A DNA stretch of 61,488 bases, from NCBI GenBank assembly GCA_049421025.1, contig JBMSMG010000001.1, positions 1 through 61,488 of the forward strand. The letters are read 5' to 3'. This document shows, piece after piece, positions 2,237-61,488 of the stretch. The notes under the pieces were generated by a model, which saw only the letters and a program-made list of their open reading frames with translations, was not told the origin of the DNA and did no database searches. Made by a program: the position numbers and the translations under genes. The DNA comes from Prochlorococcaceae cyanobacterium (lineage in GTDB: Bacteria; Cyanobacteriota; Cyanobacteriia; PCC-6307; Cyanobiaceae). Position 1 is the first letter of the stretch. Every line of letters begins with the position of its first letter.

Positions 2237-3268
2237 TCAGCGCACCGGCGTGACCGCGGTGCGGTGCAACAGCTCAAGCACCCGCCTGCGGGCATGGCGG
2301 GTTGGCATGAGGGCGGCCAGCGGCCTGAGCTTGCTGCGGCGGCGGCGGTGGCTGCGAACACCCAAGAAGATGTCGTAGAGGAAATTGAAACTGTCCTTAC
2401 GACTTTCAAACAAACCGAGGCGCTGGGGCGAGCCCTTGGCATCAAGAATGTGTCTAGTGGCGTGATAGGCAGGTCTGTACTCAAACCAAGGAATCGAAGG
2501 CCACAGATGATGGATCAGGTGATAGTTCTGGCCCATGATCAACCAATTCATCAGCCGACCCGGATAAACCCTGGCGTTGTGCCAGCGGTTGCGTGACTGA
2601 AATGGCCGGTGCGGCAGATAATCAAAGAACAATCCCAAGGTCACGCCCACCATCAGGGCAGGCGCGAACCAGCAATTGAACACAAAAGGCAGAAAACCAT
2701 ATTTCGCTGCTGCAATAACAATGCAGACAAAAATGCCGCGGGCGATACCCCACTCGAGCAGTTCATAACGTCGCCAAAGACGACGCTTGAAGAAGAACAG
2801 TTCGTGATAGAAAAATCTGGGCGCTATGAGCCACAGCGGGCCAAACGTGCTGACGATGTGATCGGGGTCGTGCTTCGGATCGTTGACATGGGCGTGGTGC
2901 TGCAAATGCACCCTGGTGAACACCGGAAAACTGAAGCCCAGCAGCATCGCGGCTCCATGGCCCATCACCGCGTTCCAGATGCGGTTGGGATGGGCCGCGT
3001 TGTGGCAAGCGTCATGAATGACCGTGCCTTCTAAGTGCAAGGCCAGAAAACCCAGCCCCAGCAGCACAGGCAGCGGCCACTGACCCACAAACCAACCCCA
3101 GATGGTGAGCGCCGCCAGGGCATAACCACCCAGAAACAGGCCGACTGTGGGGTTCCAGTGGGCCGGCGGATCCAAAAATTCCTTGGGAACCGAGCGCACA
3201 GATTCCGCCTGCAGGGTGCGAGGGGCGGGCGTCTGCGCAATCAGCGGTTGAGGCAACGCCTGGGTCAT
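2237..3268 (-). CDS. crtR: beta-carotene hydroxylase, desaturase-type (CrtR)
   Basis: Fatty-acid-desaturase-like His boxes (HDACHNAAH, HLQHHAH, NYHLIHHLWP) with N-terminal TM helices, as in cyanobacterial CrtR. ATG(3268) is preferred over the TTG(3301) of the track. Confidence 0.8.
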   Translation of the reverse strand: MTQALPQPLIAQTPAPRTLQAESVRSVPKEFLDPPAHWNPTVGLFLGGYALAALTIWGWFVGQWPLPVLLGLGFLALHLEGTVIHDACHNAAHPNRIWNAVMGHGAAMLLGFSFPVFTRVHLQHHAHVNDPKHDPDHIVSTFGPLWLIAPRFFYHELFFFKRRLWRRYELLEWGIARGIFVCIVIAAAKYGFLPFVFNCWFAPALMVGVTLGLFFDYLPHRPFQSRNRWHNARVYPGRLMNWLIMGQNYHLIHHLWPSIPWFEYRPAYHATRHILDAKGSPQRLGLFESRKDSFNFLYDIFLGVRSHRRRRSKLRPLAALMPTRHARRRVLELLHRTAVTPVR

Positions 3269-3367
3269 CAGCTCTGAAAAAACCTGGTTGCAAACAACCA
3301 AGGCGTGCAGCAGACCCCAATCGATCGGGGCTGCCCCAACTTAAGGGGCCTCAGGCCCTGGCGCGAA

Positions 3368-3449
3368 TGCCCACCGGGGGACTTGAACCCCCACAGCCGA
3401 AGCCACTGGAACCTAAACCCAGCGCGTCTACCAATTCCGCCAGGTGGGC
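3368..3449 (-). tRNA. tRNA-Leu (anticodon UAG), type II with long variable arm, CCA not encoded
   Basis: Folded by hand: acceptor GCCCACC/GGTGGGC, D arm GCGGAATTGGTAGACGC, anticodon stem CTGGG/TCCAG with loop TTTAGGT, long variable arm, T arm GGGGG-TTCAAGT-CCCCC, discriminator A. Confidence 0.85.
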
Positions 3450-3516
3450 ATTGCCCAGAGCTTACGAAGACCCGCAGCGTGACTCACAATGGAGGGCAGA
3501 TCCATTTACCGAGACG

Positions 3517-57559: not shown

Positions 57560-59038
57560 ATGGCCTCTGCCCCCCTGCCGCTGCAGGCCAGCCCGATCAG
57601 CTTCGGCACCGATGGCTGGCGCGGCATTTTGGGCGTCGACATCACGCTGGAGCGCCTGCTGCCTGTGGCGGCTGCGGCAGCGCGCGAGCTCGAGAGCTCA
57701 GCACCAGCAGCTCTCAGCAGCCGTGAGGTGGTAATCGGCTACGACCGCCGCTTTCTGGCACCGGAGCTGGCCGAAGCGATCGCCAGCGCCGTGCGCGGCG
57801 CCGGTCTCGAACCCCTGCTGAGCGATTCACCCACCCCAACCCCGGCCAGCAGCTGGGCGGTGGTGCAGCGCCAGGCCCTGGGGGCCCTGGTGATCACCGC
57901 CAGCCACAACCCACCCGAATGGCTGGGCCTCAAGATCAAAGGTCCCTTTGGCGGTTCGGTCGAGGGCGACTTCACCGCACGGGTCGAGCAGCGGCTCGAG
58001 GCCGGGGGCATCACCGCGGCGATCGCACCCGGCGCTGGCGGCGAGCCTCGCTTTGACGCCCTCAGCGCCTATGTGAGCGGCCTGCGCGCCAAGCTCGACA
58101 CCGCCGCGCTAGTGCGCGGCCTGCAGCAGATGGGGCTGTGCGTGATTGTCGATCCCATGCATGGCTCGGCCGCGGGCGTGCTGCCCGCTCTGCTGGGGGC
58201 CGAGGCCAGCGCTGACGGCCCAATCCAAGAAATACGCGCCAACCGCGACCCCCTGTTTGGCGGCAACCCGCCCGAACCCCTGGCGCCCTACCTGGGTGAG
58301 CTGATCGCGGCGGTGCAGGCCTCCACGGCCGCCGGCAAACCAGCGGTGGGGATTGTCTTCGATGGCGATGGCGACCGCATCGCCGCCATCGATGAGCGCG
58401 GCCGGTTCTGCAGCACCCAGCTGCTGATGCCGCTGTTCATCGACCATCTGGCGAGGGCGCGGCAGCTGCCGGGGGTGGTGATCAAGACCGTCAGCGGCTC
58501 CGACCTCATGCAGCAGGTGGCCGAGGGCCTGGGCCGCACTGTGCTTGAAAAGCCCGTCGGCTTCAAATACATCGCCAGCGAAATGCTGGCCGGTGAGGTG
58601 CTGGTGGGCGGCGAAGAATCAGGCGGGGTGGGCTTCGGCATCCACACCCCCGAGCGCGATGCTCCCTTTGCGGCGCTGCTGCTGCTCGAGGCCTTGGTCG
58701 AAGGCGGCCTACCCCTGGGCGCGCGGCTCGATGCGCTGATCGAGCGCCATGGCACCCCAGCCCACTACGACCGCCTCGATCTGCGGCTGGCCAGCATGGA
58801 GGCCCGCGCCAAGCTGGAGCGCCTGCTGGCCGAAACACCTCCTGCCGAGGTGGCCGGACTCCCTGTGCAGCAGGTGATCACCACCGACGGCGTCAAGCTG
58901 CGCCTGGGCCCCAGCCACTGGCTGATGCTGCGCTTTTCGGGCACCGAACCGCTGCTGCGCCTCTACTGCGAAGCCCCTACCCCCGAGCGGGTGGACGCGG
59001 TGCTGGGCTGGGCGCGGCAGCTCGCCCAGGGGGCCTGA
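57560..59038 (+). CDS. alpha-D-phosphohexomutase (phosphoglucomutase/phosphomannomutase family)
   Basis: FGTDGWRG, the active-site loop TASHNPPEWLGLKI, FDGDGDR, GGEESGG. This is a second family member besides glmM. Confidence 0.88.
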   Translation: MASAPLPLQASPISFGTDGWRGILGVDITLERLLPVAAAAARELESSAPAALSSREVVIGYDRRFLAPELAEAIASAVRGAGLEPLLSDSPTPTPASSWAVVQRQALGALVITASHNPPEWLGLKIKGPFGGSVEGDFTARVEQRLEAGGITAAIAPGAGGEPRFDALSAYVSGLRAKLDTAALVRGLQQMGLCVIVDPMHGSAAGVLPALLGAEASADGPIQEIRANRDPLFGGNPPEPLAPYLGELIAAVQASTAAGKPAVGIVFDGDGDRIAAIDERGRFCSTQLLMPLFIDHLARARQLPGVVIKTVSGSDLMQQVAEGLGRTVLEKPVGFKYIASEMLAGEVLVGGEESGGVGFGIHTPERDAPFAALLLLEALVEGGLPLGARLDALIERHGTPAHYDRLDLRLASMEARAKLERLLAETPPAEVAGLPVQQVITTDGVKLRLGPSHWLMLRFSGTEPLLRLYCEAPTPERVDAVLGWARQLAQGA

Positions 59039-59043
59039 GCCAA

Positions 59044-59679
59044 ATGACAGTCAAGCCGCTCGCCGTTGAGCCGCCTCACGGCATTCGCCTGGTAATCGCC
59101 TCAGGCAACGCAGGCAAGGTGCGTGAATTCACCGCTTTGCTCGCCGAACTGCCGCTCGCGATCGAGGCCATGCCCGCAGGGCTTGAAATCGAAGAAACCG
59201 GTTCCACGTTTGCCGAGAACGCCCGCATCAAGGCCATCGCCGTGGCCCGCGCCACCGGCACCTGGGCCCTGGCCGACGACTCGGGCCTGTGCGTCACAGC
59301 GCTTGGCGGCGCTCCTGGTGTGCATTCAGCCCGCTACGCCGAGACCGATGCGGCCCGCATTGCCCGGCTGCTGCAGGAGCTCGCCGGCATGAGCGATCGC
59401 AGCGCCCACTTCAAGGCCGCCCTGGCACTCGCCAAACCCAATGGCGATGTCGCTGTTGAAGTGGAGGGCTGCTGCCCTGGGCAGATCCTCGAGGCCCCGC
59501 GCGGTGAGGGCGGCTTTGGCTATGACCCCGTGTTTTATGTGCCTGAGGCAGGACTCACGTTTGCCGAAATGGACAAGACGTGCAAGGGCCAGATCGGCCA
59601 TCGCGGCAGGGCTTTCCAGCTTCTTATGCCGCAGCTGCAAGCCTTTCTGGCAAGCAAGCAAGAGCAGCCAAAAAACTAA
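59044..59679 (+). CDS. rdgB: non-canonical purine NTP pyrophosphatase (RdgB/HAM1 family)
   Basis: LVIASGNAGKVREF, ...ETGSTFAENA..KA..., ...ADDSGL.V.ALGG.PGV.SARY..., FGYDPVF, ...KGQIGHRGRAF. Confidence 0.88.
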   Translation: MTVKPLAVEPPHGIRLVIASGNAGKVREFTALLAELPLAIEAMPAGLEIEETGSTFAENARIKAIAVARATGTWALADDSGLCVTALGGAPGVHSARYAETDAARIARLLQELAGMSDRSAHFKAALALAKPNGDVAVEVEGCCPGQILEAPRGEGGFGYDPVFYVPEAGLTFAEMDKTCKGQIGHRGRAFQLLMPQLQAFLASKQEQPKN

Positions 59680-59690
59680 TCGTTTAAACT

Positions 59691-60233
59691 TTGCTCCATC
59701 ATTGCCCAAGCTCCGTGGGACTCCATCTGCCCAGCCAACCAGGCGAGTCCAGAAGGGCAGGGGTACGTTATGCACTTTGTGCATTCATTGGAGGACAAGC
59801 TTTAGGCATCGCGGCCCCAGCAATGGCGGGAACCCATCGAGCCATCTGCTCGTACTACACCCGCTACGAACCCTGCACGGTCACGGTTGGCGTGAACCAA
59901 GTCGAAGCCAACTTGCCAACCGACTTTCTGAGCATTGACAGCGCCAATTACGTCGACACCAAGATCTACGACGACACTGGCCGTGAATCGAACCACGCCA
60001 TTGGTGCGGCCACCACAATCCTGTTCGGCCCCATCGGCCTGCTCGGCTTTTTAGCGACCAAACGCGCTGGAACAGTCGATTTCGGCATGGAATTTCGCGA
60101 CGACCGCGGCAAAAAGAGAACAGCCTTTATTCGCTTTGTGAACATGCGTGCCGCCGACGATTTCGGCAAAGACCTCAAAGGATTTTTGAAGACAATGGAG
60201 CGTGAAAGCGGCGCCAAAGCGCAACAACACTGA
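59691..60233 (+). CDS. exported hypothetical protein A (Cys pair + Gly-zipper-like hydrophobic segment), in the AT-richer cassette
   Basis: ...ESRRAGVRYALCAFIGGQALGIAAPAMA/GTHRAICSYYTRYEPCTVTV... has a signal-peptide-like N-region. The start is ambiguous: TTG 59691, GTG 59715 or ATG 59823. Mid-protein segment: AIGAATTILFGPIGLLGFLA. G+C is about 52% (31/60 at 59881-59940). Confidence 0.45.
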   Translation: MLHHCPSSVGLHLPSQPGESRRAGVRYALCAFIGGQALGIAAPAMAGTHRAICSYYTRYEPCTVTVGVNQVEANLPTDFLSIDSANYVDTKIYDDTGRESNHAIGAATTILFGPIGLLGFLATKRAGTVDFGMEFRDDRGKKRTAFIRFVNMRAADDFGKDLKGFLKTMERESGAKAQQH

Positions 60234-60308
60234 AGCCAATTAAAGGATCACCTTCTTCAAAATCTGCTCAGCGAGTTGTGCTAACATTAAGCAAGTATTG
60301 CAAAGCCC

Positions 60309-61073
60309 ATGTTCACGCTTCGTTCTCCGCTTGCTTATGCCCTTGCAGCTGTCCTGATTGCGGGCTCAACCAATAGCGCTCTTGCGCAACAAAAGAAAAG
60401 CAAGCCAGCCTCAGCAGCCGATACTGCGGGCGAAACACTGAGAGGCATTAAGTCCACGACCGCTCGCAAGGTCATTCTGATGCCGGTCACAGATAAGTCT
60501 GGACAGGGCTCGGCATTAGCTGAATTTGCCACCGAAGTCATTAACCAGTCAGTACGGAACGGCGGCATCACCACCGTGGCCTGGTTCAAAGTTGAAAAGC
60601 AGATGAAAAAAGTGATGGGTGGCGGAAATCCTTATGCCTATGCAGGCAGCGGCGGCCTGACCAGTGATTCGAACATGAATGAATTGATCGAGGCCGGGAA
60701 AAAGCTGGGAGCTCGCTATATTCTCCGCTCTGTCATCATGACCCAATCTGCAAATAGTCAAGCAGAGACAAAGGTCACGCCCACCGTTGGAATGTTCTTT
60801 GGCTTTGGCGGCCCTAGCGTGAGGACGGAGGTCAAAAACGATGCCAATGTTGATGTCAAAGTTGACATCATCAGCACCCGCGATGAAGACATCATTGCCT
60901 CCAGAACTTTCTCTGGGCGTTCACAAGAAGTGACAAAAGACCGCGCCAATCGTCTTGACGGCATCACTGGCATGCAAGTGTTTAGTGGTGGCAGCACCAT
61001 GGACGCCACCAAAATTGCTTTCTACGACACCATCGACAAGATTGTTGAATTTCTCCAGGATAAAACCCAGTAA
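60309..61073 (+). CDS. exported CsgG/HfaB-family-like protein (no lipobox)
   Basis: Signal peptide MFTLRSPLAYALAAVLIAGSTNSALA/QQ. Blocks in CsgG-family order: KVILMPVTDKSGQG, FATEVINQSVRNGGITTVAWFKVEKQMKK, EAGKKLGARYILRSVIM, MFFGFGG, ANVDVKVDIISTRDEDIIASRTFSG. Confidence 0.5.
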   Translation: MFTLRSPLAYALAAVLIAGSTNSALAQQKKSKPASAADTAGETLRGIKSTTARKVILMPVTDKSGQGSALAEFATEVINQSVRNGGITTVAWFKVEKQMKKVMGGGNPYAYAGSGGLTSDSNMNELIEAGKKLGARYILRSVIMTQSANSQAETKVTPTVGMFFGFGGPSVRTEVKNDANVDVKVDIISTRDEDIIASRTFSGRSQEVTKDRANRLDGITGMQVFSGGSTMDATKIAFYDTIDKIVEFLQDKTQ

Positions 61074-61196
61074 GAAAACACCGACAAGGAGCGATCACTA
61101 GTTAATCACGTGATCGACTGTTGGAGATAGCTACGACAAGCTCCAATTGATTAGTCAATTACAGGATCCCTACAAACTTCATCCTCAAGCACTCTC

Positions 61197-61488
61197 GTGA
61201 AGAAATACAATTGGCTTCGTTTAATCCCTGGCACACTAGGAGCAATTGCAATAGCAACCTCTTTAGCCTTGGCTACTTCTAGGCCAGCTTTTGCAGCCGA
61301 AGAATTTACAGATCTTCAGTGCTTGAGCGACATCAAGTCAAAGGATCTTTGCAATGTCAGCTTCTACCGGAAGTTCATGAAACTGAACTTCGTCAGAACT
61401 GGCCGCTCAGTCAAAATTAACTACGCCGATATCATTCACTGGAACTATTCTGATTCCAGTCTTCGCAAAATTGATTACGGGCTAGCAA
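61197..61488 (+). CDS. exported hypothetical protein C, 5' part only (paralogue of protein A); continues past the right edge
   Basis: Not in the ORF track. Own translation from GTG(61197), first start after the in-frame TAG at 61152: VKKYNWLRLIPGTLGAIAIATSLALATSRPAFA/AEEFTDLQCLSDIKSKDLCNVSFYRKFMKLNFVRTGRSVKINYADIIHWNYSDSSLRKIDYGLA... No stop occurs before the edge. Third codon positions are A/T-rich. Confidence 0.45.
   Translation, partial: MKKYNWLRLIPGTLGAIAIATSLALATSRPAFAAEEFTDLQCLSDIKSKDLCNVSFYRKFMKLNFVRTGRSVKINYADIIHWNYSDSSLRKIDYGLA

Follow-up and report, generated by a model that had tools for sequence, protein, structure and literature searches.

Proteins of the CsgG type occur in several envelope systems of bacteria. 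Targeting of CsgG to the outer membrane needs a lipid anchor, and the substrates of CsgG-type pores are unfolded, cysteine-free, and repeat-rich amyloid subunits. In Caulobacter, the CsgG-family outer-membrane protein HfaB is found beside two small exported proteins, HfaA and HfaD, that depend on HfaB. By Foldseek comparison, outer-membrane lipoproteins that resemble PqiC, LptE, PelC, and CsgG have been grouped around one alpha/beta core for envelope transport, and those of the PelC group tend to form rings (12-mer in PelC, 8-mer in PqiC-like proteins) that serve trans-envelope transport (PMC13631591). In cyanobacteria, uncharacterized CsgG-family proteins were reported in envelope or exoproteome fractions, namely, sll1835 of Synechocystis, A2435 of Synechococcus PCC 7002, and alr3345 of Anabaena (PMC7880944, PMC10936207). 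In this work, we describe a three-gene cassette built around a putative distant relative of these proteins. The cassette is located at the right end of a 61,488-bp stretch (hereafter the window), which is the complete contig of a metagenome-assembled genome (MAG) of Prochlorococcaceae. The cassette is a mobile operon, and on balance, the evidence leans toward a hetero-oligomeric outer-envelope complex as its product.

The cassette consists of three open reading frames (ORFs) on the forward strand after rdgB. The upstream gene (59715-60233, GTG start) encodes an exported PH-like protein of 172 amino acids (aa) with a predicted disulfide pair and a hydrophobic insert. The middle gene (60309-61073) encodes an exported, cysteine-free protein of 254 aa, which appears to be a distant member of the CsgG/PelC/LptE-type alpha/beta superfamily. 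The downstream gene (61197-61488, GTG start) is a paralog of the upstream gene and is represented by its first 97 codons; because the window is the entire contig, this gene is cut by the end of the assembly and not by a sampling edge. The rightward extension proposed in the initial annotation yielded no overlapping longer contig (the exact middle protein was found elsewhere only on an 820-bp contig). Because these contigs end before the right border, we took this border from relatives, and it could be read at loci L018, L019, and L105-L110. There, the cassette has three genes and ends just before a convergent gene for an RPE65-family carotenoid oxygenase, so approximately 0.2 kb of the downstream gene is absent from the window. 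The region covers the first two genes and about half of the third gene of an accessory operon of approximately 2 kb, in a freshwater Prochlorococcaceae genome of the Cyanobium/Synechococcus type.

The sharp compositional break after rdgB that had been noted from the sequence stands out clearly in the quantitative profiles. The guanine-cytosine (GC) content is 0.659 for positions 1-59679 and 0.502 for positions 59680-61488. For 1809-bp segments upstream of 59680, the mean is 0.660 (standard deviation [SD] 0.023; minimum 0.601), and the tail is lower by about 7 SD. In a sliding profile of 300 bp, the values change from 0.64-0.70 to approximately 0.55 at 59.5-59.8 kb and to 0.43 at the contig end, and the step expected at about 59.68 kb is present. 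The GC content of third codon positions (GC3) has a mean of 0.76 (SD 0.067) among the 49 ORFs upstream of the cassette and is 0.83 in pgm, a gene of the phosphoglucomutase family, and 0.73 in rdgB. It falls to 0.62, 0.56, and 0.41 in the upstream, middle, and downstream genes, under every plausible gene of the contig. The blastn similarity to relatives ends at 59606 (L103), 59615 (L018), 59655 (L029), and 59571 (L024), all within the final codons of rdgB, and the break is therefore placed at about 59.61-59.68 kb, at the 3′ end of this gene. In this left boundary zone (59606-59679, forward strand), similarity to relatives stops and the GC content starts dropping; the C-terminal tail of RdgB varies among relatives, and the last ~25 codons differ in all of them. 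As stated initially, no tRNA, integrase, or direct repeat marks the border. There is no tRNA within 5.9 kb of the cassette, and an Rfam scan of the whole window found three tRNAs and nothing else. No integrase was found in the window, and flanking direct repeats were found neither in the window nor in the complete cassette copies at the rdgB site. A promoter and terminator scan of 59300-61488 found no promoter-like site, and terminator-like sites were at chance level.

Prochlorococcus, Synechococcus, and Cyanobium dominate oceanic and much of lake primary production. Their genomes contain hypervariable islands, which are believed to determine the cells that get grazed or infected, and integrase-borne cargo elements such as tycheposons are found in Prochlorococcus and Synechococcus. 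To our knowledge, a structure or a role is assigned to very few of the genes in these islands. The trio described here is linked in at least five genomic contexts in Prochlorococcus, marine Synechococcus, and freshwater relatives. It is located in an island with sulfotransferase and RTX-like genes in Prochlorococcus NATL1A, between ubiE and glyQ in another Prochlorococcus genome, and about 6 kb downstream of a tyrosine integrase in freshwater metagenome contigs; marine Synechococcus YX-04-1 also carries the trio. The integrase-associated loci are L002-L004 and L104, with the integrase approximately 3-6 kb from the cassette, in stretches of low GC content that are dense in genes. With strict search patterns, matches were found in 8 of 185,579 species-representative genomes, namely, seven Prochlorococcus single-cell genomes and one Cyanobium MAG.

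The upstream-middle-downstream order (type A) recurs in many of these settings. A second form (type B; L103 and L104) has proteins that are only 37-42% identical, with the middle gene inverted and the flanking genes swapped, and all three genes are still adjacent. The type B copy of L104 is beside an integrase, and that of L103 is between rdgB and RPE65. The gene gaps are 19 and 6 bp in L002, the stop and start codons abut in L009, and they overlap by 4 bp in L013; such spacing is compatible with translational coupling. In every host compared, the GC content of the cassette is under that of the host, as seen in L018 (0.39-0.55 vs. 0.68-0.72), Synechococcus YX-04-1 (0.42-0.51 vs. 0.59-0.64), L103 (0.45-0.49 vs. 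0.61-0.72), and Prochlorococcus (0.32-0.33 vs. 0.34-0.36). These patterns show that the cassette is horizontally mobile between picocyanobacterial genomes and restricted to picocyanobacteria, including Prochlorococcus. It resembles tycheposon-type islands in the low GC content relative to the host, the presence/absence polymorphism, the surface-type cargo, the assembly breaks, and the occasional neighboring tyrosine integrase. In contrast to such islands, the site in the window has no tRNA neighbor, no integrase within the window, and no flanking repeats.

The interval between rdgB and RPE65 differs greatly among relatives. Loci L018, L019, and L105-L110 have rdgB, the three genes, and the convergent RPE65-family gene, and their middle proteins are 67-83% identical to that of the window; L105 has an additional 1.7 kb at this site. 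The pgm and rdgB genes are likewise present in other relatives, and RPE65 in several of these, with different DNA after rdgB. L029 has only a small YciI-like gene in the interval, and a SIMPL-like gene together with a YciI-like gene follows rdgB in L024, L027, L030, and L031. A HEPN/nucleotidyltransferase (toxin-antitoxin-like) pair is added in L028 (5585-6456) and L023 (7066-7937). Unrelated low-GC islands directly follow rdgB in L022, L023, and L032, and no RPE65 was found on those contigs. L103 has a Pgm that is 90% identical to that of the window, yet it carries the type B cassette. The interval after rdgB is a variable, recombination-prone, non-tRNA site and a general insertion hot spot. 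The cassette is missing from this site in many relatives, found elsewhere in other genomes, and lower in GC content than every host, which agrees with its initial description as accessory DNA; the comparison of the locus downstream of rdgB also shows that it does not occupy this site in all relatives.

Two explanations of the locus itself have to be weighed against this distribution. The first is that these are ordinary, vertically inherited core genes, with a low GC content that results from amino acid or expression constraints and no island. It could draw on the presence of the cassette between rdgB and RPE65 in the freshwater relatives listed above (L018, L019, and L105-L110), on the divergent version in L103, and on the lack of integrase, tRNA, or direct repeats flanking the cassette in the window. 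We consider this explanation highly improbable because many relatives with 66-82% Pgm/RdgB identity carry other genes at the site instead, so few species-representative genomes match the strict patterns, the contexts in Prochlorococcus and marine Synechococcus are unrelated and include positions beside integrases, and the GC3 values of 0.41-0.62 are below those of all plausible genes of the contig. The second is a phage or plasmid origin of the cassette or a role in anti-phage defense, as might be suggested by its occurrence in hypervariable islands, by the integrases next to it at some loci, and by the CsgG-like genes known as auxiliary genes in pelagiphages. This is hardly credible, given that known defense systems would not typically consist of exported products only, as the cassette does. 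The phage, plasmid, or defense origin was rejected after the searches of IMG/VR contigs, INPHARED phages and PLSDB plasmids (tblastn), and PADLOC were all negative; PHROG matches were not meaningful.

Several further observations concern this site. Next to the Pgm of L103 (window positions 57560-59038), the adjoining RdgB (59044-59679) is only 68% identical to that of the window; rdgB, which borders the variable site, seems to diverge or recombine along with it. In L032, the DNA after rdgB has sialic-acid-type sugar genes and an insertion sequence transposase, and in L023, it encodes large, repeat-rich secreted proteins. Two independent MAG contigs conspecific with the window (L016 and L111) stop 385-386 bp past rdgB (at about 60064), inside the upstream gene. 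Repeated assembly breaks within the cassette are a usual sign of strain-level heterogeneity, which they suggest here.

The middle protein was initially regarded as CsgG-like, and this assignment holds in the sense of a distant and marginal member. The Pfam family CsgG (PF03783) matches residues 157-252 on profile positions 107-200 of 210, with 20.9 bits at a cut-off of 20.8 (E = 2.4e-4). We aligned 27 middle, 23 upstream, and 10 downstream family members, and 15 of the 27 middle proteins touch PF03783 at E ≤ 0.1; none scores better than the window protein. A scan of the middle protein against NCBIfam gave no match. An exhaustive search of 1.84 billion representative proteins with a hidden Markov model (HMM) found just 33 relatives (representative clusters), and on this sequence basis, the family appears to form a small clade that stands apart on the fringe of the superfamily. 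For the AlphaFold2 (AF2) model, the best Foldseek match is the CsgG pre-pore (4uv2; E = 2.9e-6, 235 columns), and it is followed by GNA1162, CT253, HpaA, PelC, LpoB, FlgT, and LptE, of which GNA1162, HpaA, PelC, and LpoB have similar scores. The modeled fold places the middle protein as a divergent member in the CsgG/PelC/PqiC/LptE superfamily of ring-forming, outer-membrane-associated alpha/beta proteins.

The candidate link to the CsgG barrel is an amphipathic beta-hairpin at residues ~145-185 (60741-60863, forward strand), which has a conserved G-M-F-F-G-F-G-G tip and may be the counterpart of transmembrane segment 1 (TM1) of CsgG. In the AF2 model, strands 135-157 and 170-189 make the hairpin, and the tip has low confidence. 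The return strand, from V171 to I187, shows a perfect alternation of charged/polar and hydrophobic residues as read from the sequence. Both hhalign and a global alignment (z = 2.7) put the GMFFGFGG tip on RYFGIGAD of CsgG, which we take to be the TM1 tip; the alignments are weak but collinear. They also put D-K-S-G-Q after strand 1 on D-E-T-G-Q of CsgG and V-D-I-I-S-T-R-D on V-V-N-V-S-T-G-E, and the family motif D-[KE]-[ST]-G-Q at the former position thus aligns with CsgG.

Several results weigh against a close relationship to CsgG or against a role in transport. A profile of the middle family had no CsgG chain among its matches to Protein Data Bank (PDB) sequences, which were chance matches only. 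The hhalign probability against E. coli CsgG is 1%. The AF2 model has a predicted local distance difference test (pLDDT) score of 67.7, which corresponds to moderate confidence, and its TM-scores to CsgG are only 0.40-0.44. The segment equivalent to TM2 of CsgG, TKDRANRLDGITGMQVFSGGST, is of suitable length yet carries charges and is modeled as helical at low confidence; because this equivalent is polar, there is a single membrane-hairpin candidate per protomer. The middle protein of the window contains no cysteine and hence no lipobox cysteine; it is therefore not a lipoprotein and is without a CsgG-type lipid anchor. Moreover, the superfamily also holds the non-transport proteins LpoB, HpaA, and FlgT, and no cargo gene accompanies the trio consistently.

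These points leave room for a non-transport envelope scaffold or regulator, i.e., a periplasmic or outer-membrane-tethered adaptor (for example, to peptidoglycan or a surface layer) with PH-like, membrane-dipping partners and no pore. In addition to the missing lipid anchor in the window type, the polar TM2 equivalent, and the lack of linked cargo genes, GNA1162, CT253, HpaA, LpoB, and FlgT match in Foldseek as well as CsgG does, and some family members have sub-threshold Pfam matches to FlgT_M. However, the middle protein is CsgG-sized and has a long amphipathic hairpin (~2 × 13 residues) with a CsgG-like tip, and small adaptors are without such a hairpin; the Pfam match is also specifically to CsgG in 15 of the 27 members. 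We thus judge the scaffold to be quite unlikely. The outer-envelope complex that we favor has its closest structural comparison in CsgG, with the PF03783 match over the C-terminal half, the top Foldseek rank, and the collinear D-x-[ST]-G-Q and F-G-x-G tip motifs. It differs from CsgG in a similarity that is at or below detection (20.9 bits, 1% by hhalign, and a global z of 2.7), in the unlipidated window protein, and in the polar TM2 counterpart.

Two loops of the middle protein, at residues ~60-70 and ~100-120 (60486-60668; columns 130-250 of A1, the middle-family alignment), have a very variable length between lineages. In Prochlorococcus and marine Synechococcus, both are low-complexity segments rich in Gly, Met, Gln, and Pro, e.g., MQMQQMQMLQMRNMGMY, and they are shortest in the window protein. 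The first variable loop is presumably at the position of the CsgG constriction loop.

For the flanking proteins, comparison with Pfam and NCBIfam gave no match, either with the window copies or with the full-length homologs. The GTG start of the upstream gene at 59715 matches that of the closest homolog, P0121, which is 91% identical, and a TTG at 59691 is a possible alternative. We found 43 homologs of this protein, and the family invariants include C53, C62, and a G-P-x-G-L-L-G-F motif. Full-length homologs of the downstream protein have 143-159 aa (173 aa in one extended gene call, L105), and the invariants of the downstream-family alignment (A3) are C47, C57, and W-N-Y-S-D-S-S-L. The cysteine pairs and the paralogy of the flanking proteins had both been noted initially. 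The invariance of C53/C62 and C47/C57 is in line with the former, and each protein is predicted to have one conserved disulfide pair; the latter is borne out as a distant relationship by the hhalign comparison of the two profiles (E = 3e-5, probability 73%, 107 collinear columns).

The AF2 model of the upstream protein has a pLDDT of 79.6 (>90 in the core), with seven strands (47-54, 60-66, 71-74, 79-82, 87-96, 127-136, and 142-149) and a long C-terminal helix (152-179). This architecture is that of the PH superfold, a seven-stranded antiparallel sandwich capped by a C-terminal helix. Nearly all of the top 50 Foldseek matches are PH, PTB, or FERM-F3 domains, although the E-values of the PH-like matches are weak (best 1.5e-3). 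By paralogy with the modeled upstream protein, the downstream protein is also likely PH-like; a type B downstream protein has a sub-threshold match to YcxB, which we take to be a PH-like family.

Between strands 5 and 6, the upstream protein has a hydrophobic insert, HAIGAATTILFGPIGLLGFL, at residues 102-121 (59994-60053, forward strand). G113, P114, G116, L117, G119, and F120 are nearly invariant in this insert (ILFGPIGLLGFL), which aligns with RIGIIGLLF of the downstream family; each flanking protein has a conserved hydrophobic insert of the I-G-L-L-G-F type. AF2 models the insert as a low-confidence helix (pLDDT 52-70), as would be expected if it were ordered only in a membrane or a protein interface. 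Alternatively, the inserts might belong to the buried core or dip into the membrane as loops, which would weaken the case for docking surfaces. A transmembrane helix was ruled out because the insert is inside a contiguous and confident PH-like sheet and the downstream paralog has only about eight hydrophobic residues there. A third type of PH-like paralog sometimes joins the cassette (L012, 1363-1815; L015, 1314-1967; L104, 5991-6545) and has the motifs A-[IL]-C-x(4-6)-C, G-P-V-G-L-V-G-F, and I-Q-F-K-N.

All three products had been described as exported, and the family alignments agree with this prediction. The N-termini are variable and hydrophobic in all three alignments, and conservation sets in precisely where AxA cleavage is predicted (AMA|GTH-x-AICS, ALA|QQ and then ETLRGI, and AFA|AEEF-x-DLQC); therefore, all three are predicted to be exported by the Sec pathway. 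In the upstream protein, the putative Sec signal peptide (59715-59828, forward strand) ends at AMA|GTH, with conservation from T48-H-x-A-I-C-S among 23 homologs and an AF2 helix at residues 22-39. Tat export of this protein was ruled out, as the RR of the window protein is not conserved among the homologs. The middle protein has a signal peptide of the signal peptidase I type (60309-60386, forward strand; ALA|QQKK) without a lipobox, and that of the downstream protein (61197-61295, forward strand) ends at AFA|AEE. In A1, the Prochlorococcus middle proteins carry L-x-G-C-S lipoboxes, and the freshwater and Synechococcus-type members are without Cys in this position.

The nature of the flanking proteins bears on a further explanation, namely, a true secretion channel of the CsgG type, in which the middle protein would form a transmembrane barrel and the small flanking proteins would be substrates secreted to the cell surface. 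The model for this is the export of HfaA and HfaD by HfaB in Caulobacter or of CsgA and CsgB by CsgG. In size and strand order, the middle protein is closer to CsgG than to the smaller PelC, LpoB, and GNA1162 (235 columns to 4uv2), the D-[KE]-[ST]-G-Q motif and the F-G-x-G hairpin tip align with CsgG, the Prochlorococcus orthologs are lipoproteins as CsgG is, and both flanking proteins are exported and disulfide-bearing. However, compact, disulfide-bonded PH-like folds without repeats are unlike the substrates of CsgG-type pores, each protomer has one membrane-hairpin candidate with a polar TM2 equivalent, and the window-type middle protein is not lipidated. An operon with the three genes at 1:1:1 and coupled starts also points to subunits over bulk substrates. 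A channel with secreted substrates is therefore unlikely in our assessment.

The cassette can also be compared with described systems. As in csgDEFG of E. coli, an exported alpha/beta protein of ~250 aa and two exported proteins of ~130-150 aa are encoded in one operon. The partners in the cassette are, in contrast, PH-like paralogs unrelated to CsgE and CsgF, with no amyloid subunit genes and no CsgD regulator; searches of the flanking proteins against Pfam and NCBIfam found no CsgE-, CsgF-, or CsgA/B-like partner. The PelC, PqiC, LptE, and GNA1162 (DUF799) proteins have the core fold (Foldseek E = 1e-5 to 1e-3) and the envelope location in common with the middle protein. However, they have 130-190 aa and no long hairpin, whereas the middle protein is longer and has a CsgG-like hairpin, and their partners PelB, PqiB, and LptD are absent from the cassette. 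HfaB, compared by description, is likewise a CsgG-family protein beside two small exported proteins, whereas HfaA and HfaD are amyloid-like or adhesin-like and not PH-like paralogs. The cyanobacterial proteins sll1835, A2435, and alr3345 are also exported and annotated as CsgG; they are regular PF03783 members by annotation, and the cassette family is set apart from them by annotation as a separate, tiny clade (33 representative clusters).

In the mechanism that we propose, the middle protein would oligomerize as a ring that is located on the inner side of the outer membrane or is partly embedded in it. As stoichiometric accessory subunits, the two PH-like paralogs may dock through their hydrophobic inserts, as CsgE and CsgF serve CsgG, and the trio together could form a surface-proximal conduit or gate for an envelope component. 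Diversifying selection on a cell-surface structure, probably by phages or grazers, may drive the variation at the site, and the presence/absence pattern, the two deeply divergent alleles, and the contig breaks fit such selection. We infer complex formation, ring assembly, the outer-membrane location, the transport role, and the selective agent, and it counts against phages or grazers as this agent that they are deduced from the population pattern. Given the overall picture, a true membrane-spanning pore is the less probable form of the complex, though a plausible one. As a whole, the most specific version is speculative and unlikely to be right in all parts, i.e., a picocyanobacteria-specific outer-membrane machine in which a single-hairpin CsgG-like ring or barrel is plugged or gated by the hydrophobic inserts of PH-like paralogs, with at least two deeply divergent and rearranged types (A and B) kept and exchanged at island hot spots under diversifying selection by phages or grazers.

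If this version is true, the cassette would act as a surface determinant of Earth's most abundant phototrophs. Should the trio form a pore or a gate at the surface, it would represent a new architecture in the CsgG/PelC/PqiC group and a specific, testable candidate for surface differences between strains; as a scaffold only, it would still illustrate allelic replacement neatly, at a hot spot without a tRNA. In either case, the cassette is a compact, strongly conserved, and taxon-restricted envelope module with a partner family that is not named in Pfam or NCBIfam. Literature searches on CsgG in Prochlorococcus/Synechococcus, on NATL1_15801, and on sll1835 found no paper on the cassette family, which is consistent with the suggestion in the initial annotation that the system is undescribed in picocyanobacteria. 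The genes themselves are not new, as the homologs are already in databases under the labels "hypothetical protein" and "lipoprotein" (e.g., NATL1_15801 of Prochlorococcus NATL1A), with CsgG as the automatic annotation by JGI for some. The core protein thus belongs to a known superfamily, and the partner family was previously unnamed.

Some loci have an optional fourth neighbor, whose product has ~120-143 aa, a signal peptide, and the shared motifs LMCK[LI]QL and [DE][KE]YC. No Pfam family matches this protein, which is probably helical as judged from its sequence. The gene was found in L008 (4849-5211), L009 (4490-4861), L010 (4768-5130), L013 (4831-5193), and L105 (3622-4053, reverse strand); it precedes the trio in several single-cell genomes of Prochlorococcus, whereas in the freshwater relative (L105), it is downstream of the trio and on the opposite strand. 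Elsewhere in the window, the patch with the second-lowest GC content of the contig is at 2100-2800 (0.53-0.58 in 500-bp segments), inside an ORF on the reverse strand (2237-3268), and adjoins a tRNA-Leu gene at 3367-3450. Within the cassette, the 123 bp that separate the middle gene from the downstream gene contain a palindrome centered on TCACGTGA (61100-61119), which could be a regulator site or a chance occurrence.

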